Shown: positions 1,498-56,040 of the stretch, piece after piece
Position numbering within the stretch: position 1 is the first letter of the stretch
How the letters are laid out: each line of letters opens with the position of its first letter
Assembly: GCF_055900595.2 (NCBI RefSeq)
Contig: NZ_CM148325.1
DNA: 64,000 nucleotides
Reading direction: 5' to 3' (one strand)
Program-made: the position numbers and the translations under genes
The notes under the pieces: model-generated
Told to the model about the DNA's origin: nothing
The model's input: only the letters and a program-made list of their open reading frames with translations
The model's database searches: none

Positions 1498-2583
1498 TTA
1501 ACGCAAAAGAATTTTGCAAATCGCGTCGGCAACCTGTGGCGTGGTGGCATTGCCTTTCATATCAGGTGTTTTCGGCCCGTGAGCAATCACTTCTTCAATC
1601 GCGGCCAGAATACCGTTATGCGCTTGCTGGAAACGCTCATCGCCATTGCCGAGAAAATCGAGCATCATTGCACCGGCCCAAATCGTGGCGATAGGGTTAG
1701 CAATATTTTTCCCGTAGATATCCGGCGCGGAACCGTGGACTGGCTCGAAGAGCGACGGGAAAGTGCGTTCGGGATTCAGGTTGGCGGATGGGGCAATGCC
1801 AATGGTGCCGGTGCAGGCCGGGCCAAGATCGGAAAGGATATCGCCAAACAAATTGGACGCCACTACCACATCGAAGCGTTCCGGCTGCATCACAAAACGT
1901 GCGCAGAGAATGTCAATATGCTGCTTGTCCCAGCGGATCTCCGGGTAATTCTCAGCCATTGCTTCCACTCGCTCATCCCAGTACGGCATGCTGATGGCTA
2001 AACCGTTCGATTTAGTGGCAGAAGTTAGCGTCTTACGTGGGCGGCTTTGCGCAAGTTCAAAGGCATAGCGCAAAATACGATCGACACCACGACGAGTAAA
2101 TACCGATTCCTGAATGACGACTTCATGCTCTGTACCTTCATTCACTCTACCGCCGAGCGAGGAATATTCGCCTTCGGTGTTTTCCCTGACCACGTAAAAA
2201 TCGATGTCGCCAGGCTGTTTTCCCGCCAGCGGGCAGGGAACGCCAGGAAAGAGACGAACCGGGCGCAGGTTGACGTACTGGTCGAACTCACGACGAAATT
2301 TCAGCAGCGAACCCCACAACGAAATATGGTCCGGAACGGTATCCGGCCAGCCGACGGCACCAAAATAGATGGCGTCGAAACGGCTAAGTTGCTCATGCCA
2401 GTCGTCCGGCATCATTTTACCGTGATGGCTGTAATACTCGCAGCTCGCCCACTCCATTTGCTCAAAACTCAAGGCGAAGCCCCAGCGCTCAGCGGCAGCC
2501 TGTAACACGCGAATCCCTTCAGGAAGGACTTCTTTGCCAATCCCGTCTCCCGGGATCGCAGCAATACGCATCGTTTTCATCAT
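1498..2583 (-). CDS. dmlA: D-malate/tartrate dehydrogenase (isocitrate/isopropylmalate dehydrogenase family)
   Basis: 361-aa ORF; MMKTMRIAAIPGDGIGKEV N-terminus and overall family signature; length matches recalled K-12 DmlA; divergent LysR regulator adjacent. Confidence 0.93.
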   Translation of the reverse strand: MMKTMRIAAIPGDGIGKEVLPEGIRVLQAAAERWGFALSFEQMEWASCEYYSHHGKMMPDDWHEQLSRFDAIYFGAVGWPDTVPDHISLWGSLLKFRREFDQYVNLRPVRLFPGVPCPLAGKQPGDIDFYVVRENTEGEYSSLGGRVNEGTEHEVVIQESVFTRRGVDRILRYAFELAQSRPRKTLTSATKSNGLAISMPYWDERVEAMAENYPEIRWDKQHIDILCARFVMQPERFDVVVASNLFGDILSDLGPACTGTIGIAPSANLNPERTFPSLFEPVHGSAPDIYGKNIANPIATIWAGAMMLDFLGNGDERFQQAHNGILAAIEEVIAHGPKTPDMKGNATTPQVADAICKILLR

Positions 2584-2685
2584 TGGGTTCTCACTTCCTG
2601 ACCATCAAAATTGACAATACCCTCATCCTATAATTGACTGAAAAGGAATTAATCCCCGTAACTGGTGAAACATAAAACACGAATC
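2584..2685. promoter_or_regulatory. dmlR-dmlA divergent control region with dyad TAATT-N11-AATTA (possible LysR-type site)
   Basis: Intergenic between divergent dmlA and dmlR; TTGACA at 2611-2616, TATAAT at 2629-2634 (short spacer), dyad 2631-2651; assignment is inference. Confidence 0.35.
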
Positions 2686-3609
2686 ATGAATAATTTACCG
2701 CTGCTGAACGATTTGCGCGTCTTTATGCTGGTGGCTCGCCGGGCTGGTTTTGCCGCTGTGGCGGAAGAATTGGGCGTTTCACCGGCGTTCGTCAGCAAGC
2801 GCATCGCCTTGCTGGAGCAAACGCTAAACGTGGTGTTGTTACACCGCACCACCCGCCGCGTCACCATTACCGAAGAAGGAGAGCGGATTTATGAATGGGC
2901 GCAGCGGATTTTGCAGGATGTTGGTCAAATGATGGACGAACTTTCTGACGTGCGTCAGGTGCCGCAGGGGATGCTGCGTATTATCAGCAGCTTTGGTTTT
3001 GGACGACAGGTAGTGGCTCCGGCGTTATCAGCGCTGGCGAAAGCGTATCCGCAACTGGAGTTACGTTTTGATGTGGAAGACCGACTGGTCGATTTGGTCA
3101 ATGAAGGCGTCGATCTCGATATTCGCATTGGCGATGATATCGCCCCTAATTTAATCGCCCGCAAACTGGCGACTAATTACCGCATTCTCTGCGCGTCGCC
3201 GGAATTTATTGCGCAACATGGCGCGCCGAAACATTTAACCGATCTTTCTGCATTGCCGTGCCTGGTCATTAAAGAGCGCGATCATCCTTTTGGTGTCTGG
3301 CAATTACGCAATAAAGAAGGCCACCATGCGATTAAAGTTACCGGCCCACTGTCGTCTAATCATGGAGAAATTGTCCATCAGTGGTGTCTCGATGGGCAGG
3401 GGATTGCTCTGCGCTCCTGGTGGGATGTTAGCGAAAACATTGCCAGTGGTCATTTAGTACAAGTGCTACCGGAATATTACCAGCCAGCAAATGTCTGGGC
3501 CGTTTATGTTTCAAGGCTGGCGACGTCAGCGAAAGTGCGGATAACGGTAGAATTTTTACGCCAGTATTTTGCCGAGCACTACCCGAATTTTTCACTGGAC
3601 CACGCCTGA
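2686..3609 (+). CDS. dmlR: LysR-family transcriptional regulator of dmlA
   Basis: ORF track 2665-3609; start moved to MNNLPLLNDLRVF to give 307 aa as recalled for K-12; N-terminal HTH then LysR substrate domain. Confidence 0.88.
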   Translation: MNNLPLLNDLRVFMLVARRAGFAAVAEELGVSPAFVSKRIALLEQTLNVVLLHRTTRRVTITEEGERIYEWAQRILQDVGQMMDELSDVRQVPQGMLRIISSFGFGRQVVAPALSALAKAYPQLELRFDVEDRLVDLVNEGVDLDIRIGDDIAPNLIARKLATNYRILCASPEFIAQHGAPKHLTDLSALPCLVIKERDHPFGVWQLRNKEGHHAIKVTGPLSSNHGEIVHQWCLDGQGIALRSWWDVSENIASGHLVQVLPEYYQPANVWAVYVSRLATSAKVRITVEFLRQYFAEHYPNFSLDHA

Positions 3610-25539: not shown

Positions 25540-26250
25540 AGGAGTGTGGCCGACAGCATATCGGCCACATTTTTGTGCACAGAAAACCCCCAGCTAGGCT
25601 GGGGGTTCCGGAAAGCTTTCAGCTTTGAGCCAGTTATTAAAACCCCTTTTGATTTGTTAAAACACCTTGCGGTCTGGCAACTGCAAGTGTCAAACAAGAA
25701 ATCAAAAGGGGGTCCCAATGGGGGACGAAAAGAGCTTAGCGCACACCCGCTGGAACTGTAAATATCACATAGTTTTTGCGCCGAAATACCGAAGACTGGC
25801 GTTTTACGGAGAGAAGCGTAGGGCGATAGGCAGTATTTTGAGAAAGCTGTGTGAGTGGAAAAGCGTACGGATTCTGGAAGCAGAGTGCTGCGCAGATCAT
25901 ATCCATATGCTTGTGGAAATCCCACCCAAAATGAGCGTATCCGGCTTTATGGGATATCTGAAAGGGAAAAGCAGTCTGATGCTTTACGAGCAGTTTGGGG
26001 ATTTGAAATTCAAATACAGAAACAGGGAGTTCTGGTGCCGAGGGTACTATGTCGATACGGTGGGTAAGAACACGGCGAAGATACAGGACTACATAAAGCA
26101 CCAGCTTGAAGAGGATAAAATGGGGGAGCAGTTATCGATTCCATATCCGGGCAGCCCGTTTACGGGCCGTAAGTAACGAAGTTGAATGCAAATGTCAGAT
26201 CGTATGCGCCTGTTAGGGCGCGGCTGGTAACAGAGCCTTACAGGCGCATT
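25540..26250 (+). mobile_element. IS200 (IS200/IS605 family), about 0.7 kb, boundaries approximate
   Basis: Contains tnpA below; left end carries the characteristic perfect hairpin gtggccgacagcatatcggccac and a second stem cccccagctaggctggggg upstream of tnpA. Confidence 0.8.
25718..26176 (+). CDS. tnpA: IS200 Y1 (HuH) transposase TnpA
   Basis: MGDEKSLAHTRWNCKYHIVFAPKYRR...HIHMLVEIPPK...YIKHQLEEDK; HuH motif; near-identical to recalled IS200 TnpA. Confidence 0.92.
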   Translation: MGDEKSLAHTRWNCKYHIVFAPKYRRLAFYGEKRRAIGSILRKLCEWKSVRILEAECCADHIHMLVEIPPKMSVSGFMGYLKGKSSLMLYEQFGDLKFKYRNREFWCRGYYVDTVGKNTAKIQDYIKHQLEEDKMGEQLSIPYPGSPFTGRK

Positions 26251-43408: not shown

Positions 43409-44659
<1,251 letters not shown>

Positions 44660-50596: not shown

Positions 50597-51925
50597 CTGA
50601 TGAATCCCCTAATGATTTTTATCAAAATCATTAAGTTAAGGTAGATACACATCTTGTCATATGATCAAATGGTTTCGCCAAAAATCAATAATCAGACAAC
50701 AAAATGTGCGAACTCGATATTTTACACGACTCTCTTTACCAATTCTGCCCCGAATTACACTTAAAACGACTCAACAGCTTAACGTTGGCTTGCCACGCCT
50801 TACTTGACTGTAAAACTCTCACTCTTACCGAACTTGGCCGTAACCTGCCAACCAAAGCGAGAACAAAACATAACATCAAACGAATCGACCGATTGTTAGG
50901 TAATCGTCACCTCCACAAAGAGCGACTCGCTGTATACCGTTGGCATGCTAGCTTTATCTGTTCGGGCAATACGATGCCCATTGTACTTGTTGACTGGTCT
51001 GATATCCGTGAGCAAAAACGGCTTATGGTATTGCGAGCTTCAGTCGCACTACACGGTCGTTCTGTTACTCTTTATGAGAAAGCGTTCCCGCTTTCAGAGC
51101 AATGTTCAAAGAAAGCTCATGACCAATTTCTAGCCGACCTTGCGAGCATTCTACCGAGTAACACCACACCGCTCATTGTCAGTGATGCTGGCTTTAAAGT
51201 GCCATGGTATAAATCCGTTGAGAAGCTGGGTTGGTACTGGTTAAGTCGAGTAAGAGGAAAAGTACAATATGCAGACCTAGGAGCGGAAAACTGGAAACCT
51301 ATCAGCAACTTACATGATATGTCATCTAGTCACTCAAAGACTTTAGGCTATAAGAGGCTGACTAAAAGCAATCCAATCTCATGCCAAATTCTATTGTATA
51401 AATCTCGCTCTAAAGGCCGAAAAAATCAGCGCTCGACACGGACTCATTGTCACCACCCGTCACCTAAAATCTACTCAGCGTCGGCAAAGGAGCCATGGAT
51501 TCTAGCAACTAACTTACCTGTTGAAATTCGAACACCCAAACAACTTGTTAATATCTATTCGAAGCGAATGCAGATTGAAGAAACCTTCCGAGACTTGAAA
51601 AGTCCTGCCTACGGACTAGGCCTACGCCATAGCCGAACGAGCAGCTCAGAGCGTTTTGATATCATGCTGCTAATCGCCCTGATGCTTCAACTAACATGTT
51701 GGCTTGCGGGCGTTCATGCTCAGAAACAAGGTTGGGACAAGCACTTCCAGGCTAACACAGTCAGAAATCGAAACGTACTCTCAACAGTTCGCTTAGGCAT
51801 GGAAGTTTTGCGGCATTCTGGCTACACAATAACAAGGGAAGACTCACTCGTGGCTGCAACCCTGCTTACTCAAAATCTATTCACACATGGTTACGTTTTG
51901 GGGAAATTATGAGGGGATCTCTCAG
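50597..51925 (+). mobile_element. IS10 (IS4 family), complete 1329-bp copy
   Basis: Outside end CTGATGAATCCCCTAATGATTTT at 50597, inside end ...GGGGATCTCTCAG at 51925; perfect 9-bp target-site duplication CACCCAGTA at 50588-50596 and 51926-51934. Confidence 0.93.
50704..51912 (+). CDS. IS10 transposase
   Basis: 402-aa ORF MCELDILHDSLYQFCPELHLKRLNSLTLACHALLDCKTLTLTELGRNLPTKARTKHNIKRIDRLLGNRHL... matching recalled IS10/Tn10 transposase almost exactly. Confidence 0.95.
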   Translation: MCELDILHDSLYQFCPELHLKRLNSLTLACHALLDCKTLTLTELGRNLPTKARTKHNIKRIDRLLGNRHLHKERLAVYRWHASFICSGNTMPIVLVDWSDIREQKRLMVLRASVALHGRSVTLYEKAFPLSEQCSKKAHDQFLADLASILPSNTTPLIVSDAGFKVPWYKSVEKLGWYWLSRVRGKVQYADLGAENWKPISNLHDMSSSHSKTLGYKRLTKSNPISCQILLYKSRSKGRKNQRSTRTHCHHPSPKIYSASAKEPWILATNLPVEIRTPKQLVNIYSKRMQIEETFRDLKSPAYGLGLRHSRTSSSERFDIMLLIALMLQLTCWLAGVHAQKQGWDKHFQANTVRNRNVLSTVRLGMEVLRHSGYTITREDSLVAATLLTQNLFTHGYVLGKL

Positions 51926-53005
51926 CACCCAGTATGTATGGAAGTCTGAAGATGTTGAGAATGTCGGTATGATACTATATACACATATTTTACTAAGTAT
52001 TTTTACTAAGCATTTCAGTAAGTGTTATACACGTATTTTCTACTAAGTGTTTTACCAGACATACACGTGTTTTCATAAACAGCCCTATAAGTGTTTTCAT
52101 TAAGCATTGCTGTACACATTGCTTTGTCTGAAACACATCCAGTTTAGTAAATCTTTACGTTAGCTAAAATCAGTTTAAAGCTGCTGTAAAACCTTTCTGT
52201 TTAAGCAATCAATCTGCTATTCGATTTTACTGATGTTGCGTTTAACCTTTTCTGAGATTTCGAGTTTCGACGTTAGCATGAGAAAAGTATCTTTACGCTA
52301 AATCAACCCGAACTTTCCTGAAGTAATCTGACGTTTTTTTCGATGTGCTTACGACGATTCTGTTAAACGACTTTCTGGATGTTTTGATAACAATCAGATT
52401 GAGGCATTAACGATTCCTGACGTTTTCTTTTCCGTGTAAGGTCATTCTTTTTGTCATGAGGTTTCTTCTTGCATTGCGAAAGTGTGATGAACGGTTTTGG
52501 TGTTTTTGATTCAGATAAGGTTTACGTTATCGATGGTTAACCGTTTTTATGGTGCGTAGTGAAACGTAACTTTTTCAGGATGAGAAAATCGATTCTGATG
52601 TTGGTGATTTTTGTTCTTGTGGCGGGGTTTATCTGTAAACAGGTTTTAAACGTGTCATTCACATCCGTGATTGAGTTGTGTGATTAAGCTGTAGGTTTTG
52701 GGGTTGTTGTTGATTTGCATTACCAGGAAGCGTTCTGGTTGCGTTTCTGGTGTTTTGTTCGAATGTTCTGTGGATCCTTTTCCCTTCTGACTTTTCTCGT
52801 TGTCCATGTCGTTTTTAAATCCATTCGCTGTTCTTGAGTGTTTTTACCCTGCGTGTAGAATTATCTTTTCGTTCCGGGATGGTTTGTTCCGTTTCAATCA
52901 CTCTTAATCAGAGAGTTGTAGCATTGCTCAATGCCGGATGCCGTAAAGTTTTACCGCGGTGATTAATGATGTGAAGTCAATCCAAATCAACGGAGATCTC
53001 TCATC

Positions 53006-53737
53006 ATGAATCAACCAATACACAATGCTTACTGGTTATCCCGTTTTGAAAGTATTCTCAACAGTGCCCTGGCGCAGCACCGTGCCGTCTCGTTAATCCG
53101 GGTGGATTTACGTTTCCCTGAGTATATGCCTGCCACCATCATGGATACCGATTTAGATTCAGCGGTGATTTCTCGTTTTTTTGCATCCCTGAAAGCAAAA
53201 ATTCAGGCTTACCAGCGACATAAACGACGTGCCAACAAGCGTGTGCGTGCAACCACTCTGCGTTATTTCTGGTGTCGGGAGTTTGGCAAGGAAAAAGGCA
53301 GGAAACATTATCACGTGATATTACTGCTCAACAAAGATACCTGGTGCTCGCCAGGGGATTTCACCGTTCCTTCTTCGCTGGCGACACTGATCAAGCTGGC
53401 ATGGTGTAGTGCTCTGCATCTTGAGCCCTGGCAGGGTAATGGACTGGTTCATTTTTCCAGGCGGACGCCTTTCCGTAAACCGACATCATCTGATGCTCGC
53501 CCTTCTTCCGATGATACGCCTTTGTCGGGTGGATGTTCTGATACCAGGAAGGCTTCAGACAAAAAGCCGGGTGAAGCCGCTGTTCTCTGGATCAAGCGTG
53601 GTGATGTGGAAGCGCTGCAGAAAGCCCGGAACAGAGCCAGTTATCTCGTGAAATATGAGACGAAGCAGCATGACGGTTCCGGGCAACGTAATTATGGTTG
53701 CAGTCGTGGGCCGGGGCGTCTGCTGGATGGCAGGTGA
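53006..53737 (+). CDS. YagK/YfjJ-family protein (island-associated, inovirus Gp2-like)
   Basis: 243-aa ORF with ...LIRVDLRFPEY...KHYHVILLLNKD... motifs; preceded by conserved leader motif. Confidence 0.6.
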   Translation: MNQPIHNAYWLSRFESILNSALAQHRAVSLIRVDLRFPEYMPATIMDTDLDSAVISRFFASLKAKIQAYQRHKRRANKRVRATTLRYFWCREFGKEKGRKHYHVILLLNKDTWCSPGDFTVPSSLATLIKLAWCSALHLEPWQGNGLVHFSRRTPFRKPTSSDARPSSDDTPLSGGCSDTRKASDKKPGEAAVLWIKRGDVEALQKARNRASYLVKYETKQHDGSGQRNYGCSRGPGRLLDGR

Positions 53738-54063
53738 GCCCTGTAAAACGACATCCGGTGTCTGAGCTTATGCTACAGGACGTTGGCTGACGCCCTTAGC
53801 TCGTTTTCTGAAAAAGTCGTCCTGAAGTCATGCAACGGTATTTTTCTCTGCTTTCGCTCCTGGAAACACTCCGTCGGTAAAACCTTACTGTCCTGCTTAA
53901 TGATGTGAACCGAAGTCAACGGAGATCATTCATTCTGAACCTGCATCCGGTGTTCTGTCCCTTGTCGGTTACCTGATCTTCCCGTTCTGCCGCGGTTTTT
54001 CACTTATTCCATCAACCCCATACGCAAGCCATAACACGTCAGCGCATCCACGGGCAGGACGCG

Positions 54064-54666
54064 TTGTGGGCTGCGTATAACGGAACATATCTTATGAATG
54101 CTATCCCTTATTTCGACTATAGCATGGCGCCCTTCTGGCCATCTTATCAGAACAAAATCATCGGCGTTCTCAACCGTGTGTTGCGCGAGCAGTCCGGCTC
54201 CAGGATACGGCGGATCCTGCTTCGTCTGCCGGGGGAACATGGCAACATCTTCAGCGACAGAAAAACCTGGTTCGGTATGGCCTTTATCGAAACCGTCAGT
54301 GCGCTGATGAATGCAACCCCCGGACGCGACCTCTGCTGGCTCCTGACACGTCATCCTGAAAAACCGGAATACCACGTGGTGCTGTGCGTCAGACAGGAAT
54401 ATTTCGACGGCCCTGAGCTGGACCGGTTGATTCTGGATGCCTGGAGCAACGTACTGGGCTTCGCGTCACCGGGTGAAGCAGCACCGTACCAGAAACAGAT
54501 AACCCGGGATGTGGTGCTGGACAGTTGTTCACCGGACTGCGAAGAGAGACTCAAAGAGCTGATATGGGCGTTCAGTGATTTCGCCCGCGATCGTCGTGGT
54601 GTGCGCGATCCGGAAGCCCGTTACCTCGCCGGTAATCCCTGGTATCCCGTAGCAGGCCAGCTCTGA
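54064..54666 (+). CDS. YagK/YfjJ-family paralog
   Basis: 200-aa ORF with corresponding motifs RILLRLPGEH and PEYHVVLCVRQE; same leader motif upstream; true start may be an internal Met. Confidence 0.55.
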   Translation: MWAAYNGTYLMNAIPYFDYSMAPFWPSYQNKIIGVLNRVLREQSGSRIRRILLRLPGEHGNIFSDRKTWFGMAFIETVSALMNATPGRDLCWLLTRHPEKPEYHVVLCVRQEYFDGPELDRLILDAWSNVLGFASPGEAAPYQKQITRDVVLDSCSPDCEERLKELIWAFSDFARDRRGVRDPEARYLAGNPWYPVAGQL

Positions 54667-54734
54667 AAGCTCAGCTCAGCAGATTCACCCGCATTTGCCC
54701 AACATTCATAAATCTCACAGAGGACATTCTGACC

Positions 54735-54971
54735 ATGTTGACCTCAATGACAGGTCACGACAGCGTATTGCTGCGTGCCGACGATCCCCTGATCGACATG
54801 AACTACATCACCAGCTTCACTGGTATGACCGACAAATGGTTTTACAAGCTGATCAGTGAAGGCCATTTCCCTAAACCCATCAAACTGGGGCGCAGCAGCC
54901 GCTGGTACAAAAGTGAAGTGGAGCAGTGGATGCAGCAACGAATCGAGGCATCACGAGGGGCAGCAGCATGA
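54735..54971 (+). CDS. AlpA-family phage/island transcriptional regulator (excisionase-like HTH)
   Basis: 78-aa ORF with ...YITSFTGMTDKWFYKLISEGHFPKPIKLGRSSRWYKSEVEQWM. Confidence 0.78.
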   Translation: MLTSMTGHDSVLLRADDPLIDMNYITSFTGMTDKWFYKLISEGHFPKPIKLGRSSRWYKSEVEQWMQQRIEASRGAAA

Positions 54972-55720
54972 AACGTGTTGTAATGCCGGTACGCTGGCAA
55001 TGTGCAAAATACCAGCGTTGGTATTGTGGAAATCAGCCCTGTCCCTGGTGCTGGCGACCTGCTGCCCCCGTCTGTCATTCCTCGTTCTTCGCTGTAACAG
55101 GCATCGTACCGGTCTCGGCGTGCTTTCCTGCGTACCGACACCGGTTCAGCAACATTCAAGGGGATCAAATCGTGCAAATAACCGAAACCGTACTTTCAGA
55201 GCCGGTGGAAATCCGGCGTTTTATTCAGCAGGCGGTGGATCACTGGCCGCGTCTGCTGGCCGTCCACTTCACACTCCATTCGGCAGAAGGAAACATCAAC
55301 GGACAACAGATTCATGCATTCTGTACTTCCTTTTACCGACAGGTGCACGAGCGTATTACTGAACGTAATCACACGGCCAGTCCAGCACCACCGGTGGTAT
55401 TACGCTGGTTGCGGGAACAACATGGAGGAGCAACAATGCGATGCCTGTTGCTGCTCAGCCAGACGAGCATTTGCCATCCACGGGTCAGTGCCACGGTTGA
55501 TGAAGAATGTTCGCAACGGGTGGATTTATTGCAACAGACATGGCGGGTGATAAGTGCTGACGGACAATGCCGGGTGGAAAGGTGTTTTCAGGCTGCCCGG
55601 GGTGATACATCCGGCCAGTATATTGCGTTAAAAACAGTTGCATTGTCTCTGGGGTTACCGGTTGTGACCGGTATTACCCATCGCCCGGTACAGCGCTGTA
55701 CATTGATTACAGCTCAGTGA
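54968..55720 (+). CDS. Hypothetical protein with cysteine-rich N-terminus
   Basis: ATG at 54968 overlaps alpA stop (ATGA); N-terminus has CAKYQRWYCGNQPCPWCWRPAAPVCH; alternative GTG start near 55174; no family recognised. Confidence 0.4.
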   Translation: MKRVVMPVRWQCAKYQRWYCGNQPCPWCWRPAAPVCHSSFFAVTGIVPVSACFPAYRHRFSNIQGDQIVQITETVLSEPVEIRRFIQQAVDHWPRLLAVHFTLHSAEGNINGQQIHAFCTSFYRQVHERITERNHTASPAPPVVLRWLREQHGGATMRCLLLLSQTSICHPRVSATVDEECSQRVDLLQQTWRVISADGQCRVERCFQAARGDTSGQYIALKTVALSLGLPVVTGITHRPVQRCTLITAQ

Positions 55721-55737
55721 ACAGCGCTGTTGTGCAG

Positions 55738-56040
55738 TCAACGAGGTTTTCTGTCTTTTCGTCGGTCATTCAGCATCATTAAACGGGTCTCTGCCTCTTT
55801 CTGTTCCTGTGGTGTCACTTCCCCGCACGGCTGACCGTTCAGGTTGTAACGGGCGCCACCTGCTATTAACGCACGGTAATAGCGCGGAGACTGCACATAA
55901 GACGCCACTGCTGCATGTAATGTACCAGCGCCAAACGCCAGTTCTCGGATGGCGATATCCTGTATCAGGTCGTCAGGTATCCCCACTTTAAGTGGTTTTG
56001 TTTTTTTCCCGGTTGAATGACTCAGGCCAGAGTTCCACAA
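55738..56040 (-). CDS. Hypothetical 100-aa protein
   Basis: ORF only; basic C-terminus; no family recognised. Confidence 0.3.
   Translation of the reverse strand: MWNSGLSHSTGKKTKPLKVGIPDDLIQDIAIRELAFGAGTLHAAVASYVQSPRYYRALIAGGARYNLNGQPCGEVTPQEQKEAETRLMMLNDRRKDRKPR

Follow-up and report, generated by a model that had tools for sequence, protein, structure and literature searches.

A 250-codon reading frame after an alpA-like gene as a probable in-frame fusion of a small zinc-ribbon ORF and a UCP030791-family gene

The 250-codon open reading frame (ORF) that follows an alpA-like gene in the 64,000-nucleotide stretch of DNA analysed here (the window) is best explained as a chimera of two neighbouring alpA-operon genes of a CP4-like island, a reading that is very probably correct. 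The genes joined in it are a small zinc-ribbon ORF, which begins at the ATG overlapping the alpA stop codon, and a GTG-initiated gene for a 182-residue protein of the UCP030791 family.

Locus and reading frames

By nucleotide comparison, the region 53,000-56,300 of the window is 100% identical in E. coli SMS-3-5 and many other strains. It contains five genes and lies within a CP4-like integrative island. The features of the locus are as follows:

53006..53737, + strand: canonical YagK/YfjJ (inovirus Gp2-like) gene with an HYH (HUH) motif (PF11726, E=2.9e-36; PF23343, E=3.4e-10)
54094..54666: hypothetical gene upstream of the alpA-like gene
54735..54971, + strand: alpA-like gene, 78 aa, AlpA/excisionase-type helix-turn-helix (PF05930 Phage_AlpA, E=2e-10)
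54955..54960, + strand: Shine-Dalgarno-like GAGGGG, 7 nt before ATG 54968 (sequence)
54968..55720, + strand: 250-codon ORF, very probably a lineage-specific in-frame fusion (sequence, alignments with relatives)
54968..55057, + strand: conserved core (codons 1-30) of the small zinc-ribbon ORF (orthologues, pN/pS, hhalign)
55058..55171, + strand: spacer remnant read as a 38-codon 'linker' (alignment with allele L003 and in A2; spacer lengths)
55108..55145, + strand: stem-loop ACCGGT...TTTCCT...ACCGGT in the old spacer (folds in the window and in relatives)
55160..55164, + strand: Shine-Dalgarno-like GGGGA, 7 nt before GTG 55172 (sequence)
55172..55720, + strand: UCP030791-family gene, 182 aa, GTG start (WP_001167455.1, PF27752)
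55738..56246, - strand: convergent ProQ/FinO-family gene, frameshifted (PF04352, E=4.9e-17 for 55738..56040)

The ATG at 54968-54970 overlaps the TGA of the alpA-like gene at 54969-54971 (ATGA), and the frame is open from there to the TGA at 55718-55720, giving a product of 250 aa with the N-terminus MKRVVMPVRWQCAKYQRWYCGNQPCPWCW; both the overlap and the open ORF to 55720 are present in the sequence as the first-pass annotation had described them. An in-frame internal GTG lies at 55172-55174, and AAGGA or GGGG is found in relatives at the site equivalent to 55160..55164. Neither the 250-aa nor the 182-aa product matched a PHROGs entry or any model in the Pfam copy searched, which lacks PF27752, and an NCBIfam scan of the two returned a single meaningless 15-bit match. 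Scans with Pfam, NCBIfam and PHROGs detected no primase, helicase or DUF3987-type domain in the gene after alpA, unlike the related islands of the earlier remark, in which such genes often follow alpA.

The alpA-like protein matches the PHROG 'excisionase and transcriptional regulator' (E=6e-10), and 54735..54971 is labelled by PGAP as a helix-turn-helix/AlpA family regulator. Kinship of the ORF 54064..54666 with the UCP030791 family was unsupported in hhalign (probability 1%). The ProQ/FinO gene is flagged 'frameshifted' by PGAP in identical DNA; this adjoining gene is a pseudogene, and IS elements flank the locus. No sigma-70 promoter was detected in a scan of 53,700-56,300, the two terminator-like matches in that interval, one of them at 55201-55217 within the UCP030791 gene, were at chance level, and an Rfam scan of the whole window returned nothing within 54,000-56,500.

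The GTG start and the UCP030791 family

Annotation, the N-termini of homologues, comparison of spacers and a strand in the predicted model together make the GTG at 55172 a well-supported start. PGAP annotates solely 55172..55720, as the 182-aa WP_001167455.1 (RefSeq 'UCP030791 family putative phage-derived protein'), and in all records inspected it chose the GTG, in none the upstream ATG; the gene likewise always starts with GTG in eight divergent E. coli copies. The in-frame sequence 5' of the GTG is open for just 33-96 nt in relatives, and their alpA-to-GTG spacer, which measures 242-280 nt as against 200 nt in the window, contains stops and frameshifts. In many genomes, including O157:H7, the nucleotide match to the window (BLAST) sets in precisely with the GTG. 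A search of 5.8 billion proteins yielded 297 homologues, all with PF27752 and most of them 170-182 aa in length and starting (M/V)QITE; N-terminal extensions, where present, are unrelated or derive from another frame of the same DNA (MCKxPALVLW...), as they do in P0003, P0061 and P0109. When 1.84 billion cluster representatives were searched exhaustively with HMMER, a small family of 61 representatives emerged, the remote members of which (24-39% identity) have no Cys-rich N-terminus and start ~17 residues before an RRxLQQAVDHYPRL motif. The GTG start puts 17 residues ahead of RRFIQQAVDHWPRL, and throughout an alignment of 23 members with 24-87% identity (A3) the start lies ~15-20 residues before the motif (D/Y)H(Y/W)P(R/H)L, without a Cys-rich extension. 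In the AlphaFold model (pLDDT 86, pTM 0.81), the fold includes a confidently predicted beta-strand made by residues 2-8 of the GTG-initiated product.

Several points of the first-pass annotation have to be revised on this basis. The alpA-coupled extension had been taken as the N-terminus of the protein, and in relatives it is interrupted by stops or lies in another frame. The protein had been called unrecognised, but PGAP carries 55172..55720 as WP_001167455.1 and all homologues have PF27752. A single 250-aa protein had been proposed, but solely the GTG-initiated product is conserved and its family, PF27752/UCP030791, is known, the very outcome that the first-pass annotation had named as refuting its view. 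Precomputed PF27752 matches were present on all 120 homologues listed, including ones 98-100% identical, and the membership of the window protein follows from these precomputed matches to near-identical proteins together with the PGAP naming. Compared with PF27752 (PIRSF UCP030791), the 182-aa part of the window product shows no difference, and the 68-residue N-terminal extension is foreign to the family.

Profile comparisons indicate that UCP030791 is a distant, diverged relative of the YagK/YfjJ/inovirus-Gp2 Rep-like proteins, forming a branch that lacks HUH. Nine of 23 diverse members match PF11726 (YagK_YfjJ_C), the best with E=5.5e-10, and the family profile A3 was aligned by hhalign with the YagK/YfjJ protein of the window over 87 columns (probability 92.5%, E=4.8e-7); the window protein itself gave no match to PF11726 at E<=1. 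A structure search of BFVD returned weak matches to inovirus Gp2 and microvirus Rep proteins, and Foldseek against the PDB returned nothing at E<=1e-3. Sequence searches of the PDB using the A3 profile and the profile of the small ORF (A4) identified no relatives. In the alignment, the YagK segment KHYHVILLLN, which contains the HYH motif, is placed against ATMRCLLLLS, so that the motif positions read T-M-R in the window and x-R-M in the family consensus, and the His pair of HUH (His-x-His) occurs at the aligned columns in 0 of the 23 A3 members. The sole candidate for a motif-3 tyrosine, Y150 (helix 148-159), is Y, F, L, H or A across A3, its putative positional equivalence falling in a C-terminal region that was left unaligned by hhalign; no Tyr is invariant in A3. 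Given the absent HUH motif and the unconserved Y150, UCP030791 is probably a Rep-derived but non-catalytic protein and not a nickase.

The small zinc-ribbon ORF

The ATG overlapping the alpA stop opens, in relatives, an ORF of 30-51 codons (30, 37 or 50-51) that then ends in a stop, and its product reads MKRVVMPVRWQCAKC(R/Q)RWYCG(N/A/T)(Q/R)PCPWCWRH.... A scan of a genome collection with the UCP030791 profile identified 17 loci from other Enterobacterales, six of which (Siccibacter, Tenebrionibacter, Yokenella, Hafnia, Superficieibacter and an Enterobacteriaceae MAG) carry a 44-45-codon ORF located 17 nt after the alpA TGA and behind GAGGAG, with the product MEK(R/Q)RRT.P...P.RW.C.RC.R.YCG..PCPVCFR...; the orthologues in these genera adjoin alpA. 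The encoded motif, RWxCxxCxRxYCGxxPCPxC(W/F)R, is conserved across genera as W-x-C-x2-C-x4-C-x4-C-x2-C. A metagenome scan that used only the initial 20 nt of the ORF as its anchor collected 105 homologous copies. Calculated from related, non-independent sequences, and with the first 20 nt set by the search pattern, pN/pS was 0.15 in the small-ORF frame versus 0.55-6.2 in the other two frames for the E. coli set, and 0.31 versus 0.95-1.4 for the cross-genus set, and the five-Cys motif (CxxC-x4-C-x4-CxxC) was intact in 73 of the 105 metagenome copies, the lengths of which were mostly 30, 37 or 50-51 codons. Variable columns in these copies numbered 8, 10 and 21 at codon positions 1, 2 and 3, respectively.

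The remaining metagenome copies carry Cys15 to Tyr (11/105), a 26-nt deletion (12/105) or are otherwise broken (9/105). Altered in these three ways, ~30% of the E. coli small-ORF copies fit decay as well as function. Codon 15 (55010-55012) is TAC (Tyr) in the window as opposed to TGC (Cys) in most relatives. The alpA and small-ORF pair also occurs with unrelated cargo, namely a pap operon and a MADS defence system, and homology of these islands to the window ends at 55058, the end of codon 30 (BLAST). The small ORF is mostly unannotated, with just 15 matching database proteins, several of them frameshifted, and some RefSeq records have in its place an annotation of the frameshifted 41-52-aa allele. 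A Trp-rich leader peptide acting in attenuation was considered for the small ORF and rejected, solely W10 being conserved across genera. Taken together, the comparisons of relatives indicate that the small ORF is a real, separate and conserved microprotein gene under selection.

The alignment of the small ORF (A4) was matched by hhalign to that of Zn_ribbon_11 domains (A5) over 27 columns, with a probability of 91.2% and E=1e-6. The ligand spacing of the two is identical, W-x-C-x2-C-x3-Y-x-G-x3-C-x2-C, and every cross-genus orthologue has this pair of CxxC knuckles, as have 73 of the 105 related copies. The cross-genus orthologues scored 13.1-16.8 bits (E=0.005-0.075) against PF11682, below its gathering score of 24 bits, and the E. 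coli forms gave no match; nor was any NCBIfam match above threshold obtained. However, the small ORF is a stand-alone product of 30-51 aa with an additional invariant Cys (YCG), whereas Zn_ribbon_11 (PF11682) is a C-terminal domain of DUF7828 proteins. In other genera, two DUF7828 proteins whose genes lie between the small ORF and UCP030791 end in this domain, and in P0052 it is fused to the C-terminus of UCP030791 itself. The window copy, unlike Zn_ribbon_11, has Tyr at the second ligand (CAKY) and fails the two-knuckle spacing. An AF2 model of the small ORF, of low-to-moderate confidence (pLDDT 70), comprises a hairpin (9-20) and a helix (26-33) and is compatible with putative zinc binding, without being evidence for it. 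Judged by its profile and ligand spacing, the small ORF appears to add a new member to the Zn_ribbon_11 kind, one that stands alone, is largely unannotated and has predicted zinc binding. The cysteine array likened to a zinc ribbon in the earlier reading therefore stands in so far as it is conserved across genera, beyond chance, but in the window Tyr15 replaces a canonical ligand, and the array belongs to a separate small gene and not to the N-terminus of a 250-aa protein.

Origin of the fusion and comparison with known systems

The closest unfused allele, L003, is identical to the window over the first 91 nt after the ATG, including the Tyr15 codon. After that, 12+19+17+5+2 nt (~55 nt) are missing from the window in the pairwise alignment and also in a multiple alignment (A2). 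The deletion junctions relative to L003 were placed at ~55059-55084 (~55 nt gone) and at ~55160-55162 (~11 nt gone, near the ribosome-binding site), and with these two deletions the tail and stop of the small ORF are gone and the small ORF is in frame with UCP030791. Read from these alignments, the 250-codon ORF is in all likelihood an accidental in-frame fusion in one E. coli island lineage and not a conserved protein. The fused form was found in 7 of the 105 metagenome copies, one of which retains Cys15. By BLAST, ~90 complete E. coli records match the window allele with an identity of 99% or more, and the persistence of an unchanged fused allele in ~90 complete genomes argues that it is stable and might be functional. 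On the other hand, the near-identical sister allele P0126 (MKRV...RPAAPSVIPRSSL) carries a frameshift that splits the two ORFs again, which argues that the fused frame is not being maintained. The stem-loop of the old spacer has a consensus of 14 pairs, many of them G-U, with one-sided changes only and no compensatory pairs (RNAalifold). The spacer was also considered as a structured RNA and rejected as such, with z=-0.5 in the window and -1.6 to -2.3 in relatives and a hairpin devoid of compensatory changes.

Three other readings of the locus were weighed against an accidental fusion. That the ORF encodes a single genuine 250-aa Cys-rich protein, with an N-terminal zinc ribbon and the alpA-coupled ATG as its normal start, is highly improbable: although the ORF is unbroken in the window and in the identical DNA of many strains, and some gene callers emit it (P0001, 226 member sequences), the extension is missing, interrupted or frame-shifted in most copies and does not occur in remote homologues, the upstream start is unused by PGAP, the P0126 frameshift parts the two ORFs, and the linker is a translated spacer holding the conserved stem-loop. 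It is also unlikely that the small ORF is no gene at all and that the 90 nt after alpA are kept as DNA or RNA, for instance as a 3' element of alpA or the 5' UTR of the next gene, the Cys pattern being incidental. The near absence of annotation (the 15 database proteins, several frameshifted), the lack of a Pfam or NCBIfam match above threshold and the altered ~30% of E. coli copies would all suit such a reading, but the peptide motif is held across genera despite DNA divergence (pS 0.37 versus pN 0.12), third-position changes are in excess, the ligand spacing is that of Zn_ribbon_11 with the 91% hhalign match, and in other genera the ORF has its own Shine-Dalgarno sequence and an ATG conserved 17 nt after alpA.

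Alternatively, the fusion could be an adaptive new protein in which a zinc ribbon was recruited onto UCP030791, comparable to the joining of Zn_ribbon_11 to DUF7828 nearby. Zn_ribbon_11 is naturally C-terminal in DUF7828 proteins of the same operon in other genera, P0052 bears it on the C-terminus of UCP030791, strains from several hosts and sources carry the fused allele, and one fused metagenome copy has kept Cys15. Even so, we consider this unlikely, as the fused form is rare (the 7 copies noted above), the usual fused allele has C15Y at a canonical ligand position, the sister allele re-breaks the frame, and the ProQ pseudogene and surrounding IS elements fit a decaying island.

Under the favoured reading, that of an accidental chimera, the first gene would be a microprotein gene of 30-51 codons that starts at the alpA-overlapping ATG or, in other genera, 17 nt further on behind a Shine-Dalgarno motif of its own, and its product would be a stand-alone Zn_ribbon_11-like, putatively zinc-binding module (W-x-C-x2-C-x3-Y-C-G-x3-C-x2-C). 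The second gene would start at GTG 55172 and encode the 182-aa UCP030791 protein, in which a Rep-type palm/RRM-like fold may have been kept and the HUH motif is lacking. Spacer deletions of ~55 nt and ~11 nt would then have joined the two in frame in the lineage of the window. In translational coupling, terminating ribosomes re-initiate at an overlapping start codon, and ribosomes finishing alpA may do so at ATG 54968. From the window allele, read-through of the former spacer would yield a Zn-ribbon(C15Y)-linker-UCP030791 chimera, with or instead of the 182-aa protein; the zinc motif of this chimera would be short of one canonical ligand, and initiation at the GTG may still provide the normal 182-aa protein. 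UCP030791 may act as a non-catalytic nucleic-acid-binding accessory of an excision/replication-regulation module of the island, with the microprotein as a zinc-dependent partner or regulator in the same module.

A broader proposal, which we put forward tentatively, is that thousands of enterobacterial genomes contain an unannotated, functional, alpA-coupled zinc-ribbon microprotein of 30-51 aa. Together with AlpA it would make up a fixed two-gene module where the island backbone ends, and it would control excision, replication or gene expression of the island jointly with either AlpA or the DUF7828-Zn_ribbon_11 and Rep-like proteins. If this were true, the fusion in the window and the C-terminal fusion in P0052 would serve as Rosetta-stone hints of a cooperation between UCP030791 and the zinc ribbon.

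The overall finding is ordinary and the gain in annotation modest. The correct gene model consists of alpA, the small zinc-ribbon ORF (fused and mutated here) and the UCP030791 gene with its GTG start. It leaves no new zinc-ribbon protein of 250 aa, and the 182-aa gene was already catalogued. Standard pipelines miss a conserved microprotein gene beside alpA. The placement of UCP030791 as an HUH-less branch of YagK/YfjJ/Gp2 argues against a nickase and suggests a binding or regulatory role. Multi-copy islands make in-frame gene fusions via small deletions, which calls for caution in ORF-based discovery.

In a literature search, no functional study of UCP030791, YagK, YfjJ, Zn_ribbon_11, DUF7828 or AlpA with a zinc ribbon was found; AlpA and Gp2-like genes are listed as core genes of Pseudomonas islands (preprint 10.1101/2024.08.29.610337). 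YagK/YfjJ proteins (PF11726), inovirus Gp2 and the REP_ORF2-G2P rolling-circle initiators belong to the HUH superfamily, whereas UCP030791 is without the HUH motif; it shares its island context with the canonical YagK/YfjJ gene at 53006..53737. P4-like satellites and PICIs have primase/replicase genes after alpA, but the island in the window has no primase, helicase or DUF3987 there. The CP4-57 element of E. coli K-12 differs in organisation from the window, being arranged as alpA-yfjI (DUF3987)-yfjJ, and contains no copy of the zinc-ribbon small ORF. Common to the island of the window and the P4-like, PICI and CP4-57 operons is an AlpA-family gene at the head of a co-directional set that includes Gp2/YfjJ-like proteins.

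Zinc-ribbon modules around UCP030791

In other Enterobacterales, the order alpA, a 44-aa zinc-ribbon ORF, two DUF7828+Zn_ribbon_11 genes and the gene for UCP030791 (a Rep-like PF27752 protein) was read in L015, L017, L021, L022, L025 and L029 (at approximately 1,750-3,520 in each locus). The DUF7828+Zn_ribbon_11 genes form a paralogous, overlapping pair encoding approximately 140 aa each and, together with the 44-aa ORF, therefore bring the zinc-ribbon module to three copies per operon. A second, independent fusion of UCP030791 and zinc-ribbon modules is P0052, an E. coli homologue of 196 aa in which the C-terminus of UCP030791 carries a Zn_ribbon_11 tail (PF27752 + PF11682).

Altered alleles of the small zinc-ribbon ORF

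A 26-nt deletion within the small ORF that follows alpA was identified in L005 (1769..1927), in L157 (2764..2889) and in 12 of 105 metagenome copies, shifting the frame to yield a hydrophobic product of 41-52 aa that begins MKRVAM(P/S)ALVLRK. This product is annotated in RefSeq (WP_000831911.1, WP_001342704.1), unlike the canonical 37-aa zinc-ribbon form, which is unannotated. The copy in L156 (NZ_CM172034.1), an island with a MADS defence system downstream of the small ORF, starts with ATA, overlaps the alpA stop codon as ATAA and has Val in place of Gly21; it looks like a decaying copy.

Genes and stem-loop near UCP030791

54094..54666, plus strand: conserved hypothetical gene (190 aa) between YagK/YfjJ and alpA
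55108..55145, plus strand: stem-loop ACCGGT...TTTCCT...ACCGGT, conserved in relatives
55738..56246, minus strand: ProQ/FinO-family gene, convergent with UCP030791

The 190-aa product contains an 'EYHVVL' segment with a single His and matched PF11726 very weakly (E=0.3), and its comparison with UCP030791 using hhalign gave no significant match; it might be a further degenerate Rep-like paralogue. The stop codons of the ProQ/FinO-family gene and UCP030791 lie 17 nt apart, and the former gene is frameshifted in the window and in identical strains but intact in relatives (114-174 aa). The stem-loop is located approximately 30-65 nt 5' of the UCP030791 GTG, with counterparts at equivalent positions in L003-L011, which carry related DNA, and in metagenome loci. 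As four of the 14 pairs in its consensus are G-U, it is plus strand-specific as RNA. Changes across relatives were one-sided only, with no compensatory pairs, and a 3' T-run is absent. Given the adjoining ProQ/FinO-family gene, it is conceivable that the stem-loop serves as a ProQ-type RNA target.

Adhesin and Rfam RNAs elsewhere in the window

58691..60385, plus strand: YadA-like adhesin ORF (564 aa)
25585..25708, plus strand: STnc490 sRNA
44468..44590, minus strand: isrC sRNA
50642..50711, minus strand: IS10 RNA-OUT

The adhesin, of 369 aa in E. coli SMS-3-5 compared with 564 aa here, contains a 99-nt (33-aa) unit repeated 3.2 times in tandem at 59506..59817 with 96% identity. All three RNAs were Rfam matches at gathering level. 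An IS10-type transposase ORF (50704..51912) begins within RNA-OUT, and isrC is typical of Ag43/CP4-44-type islands.
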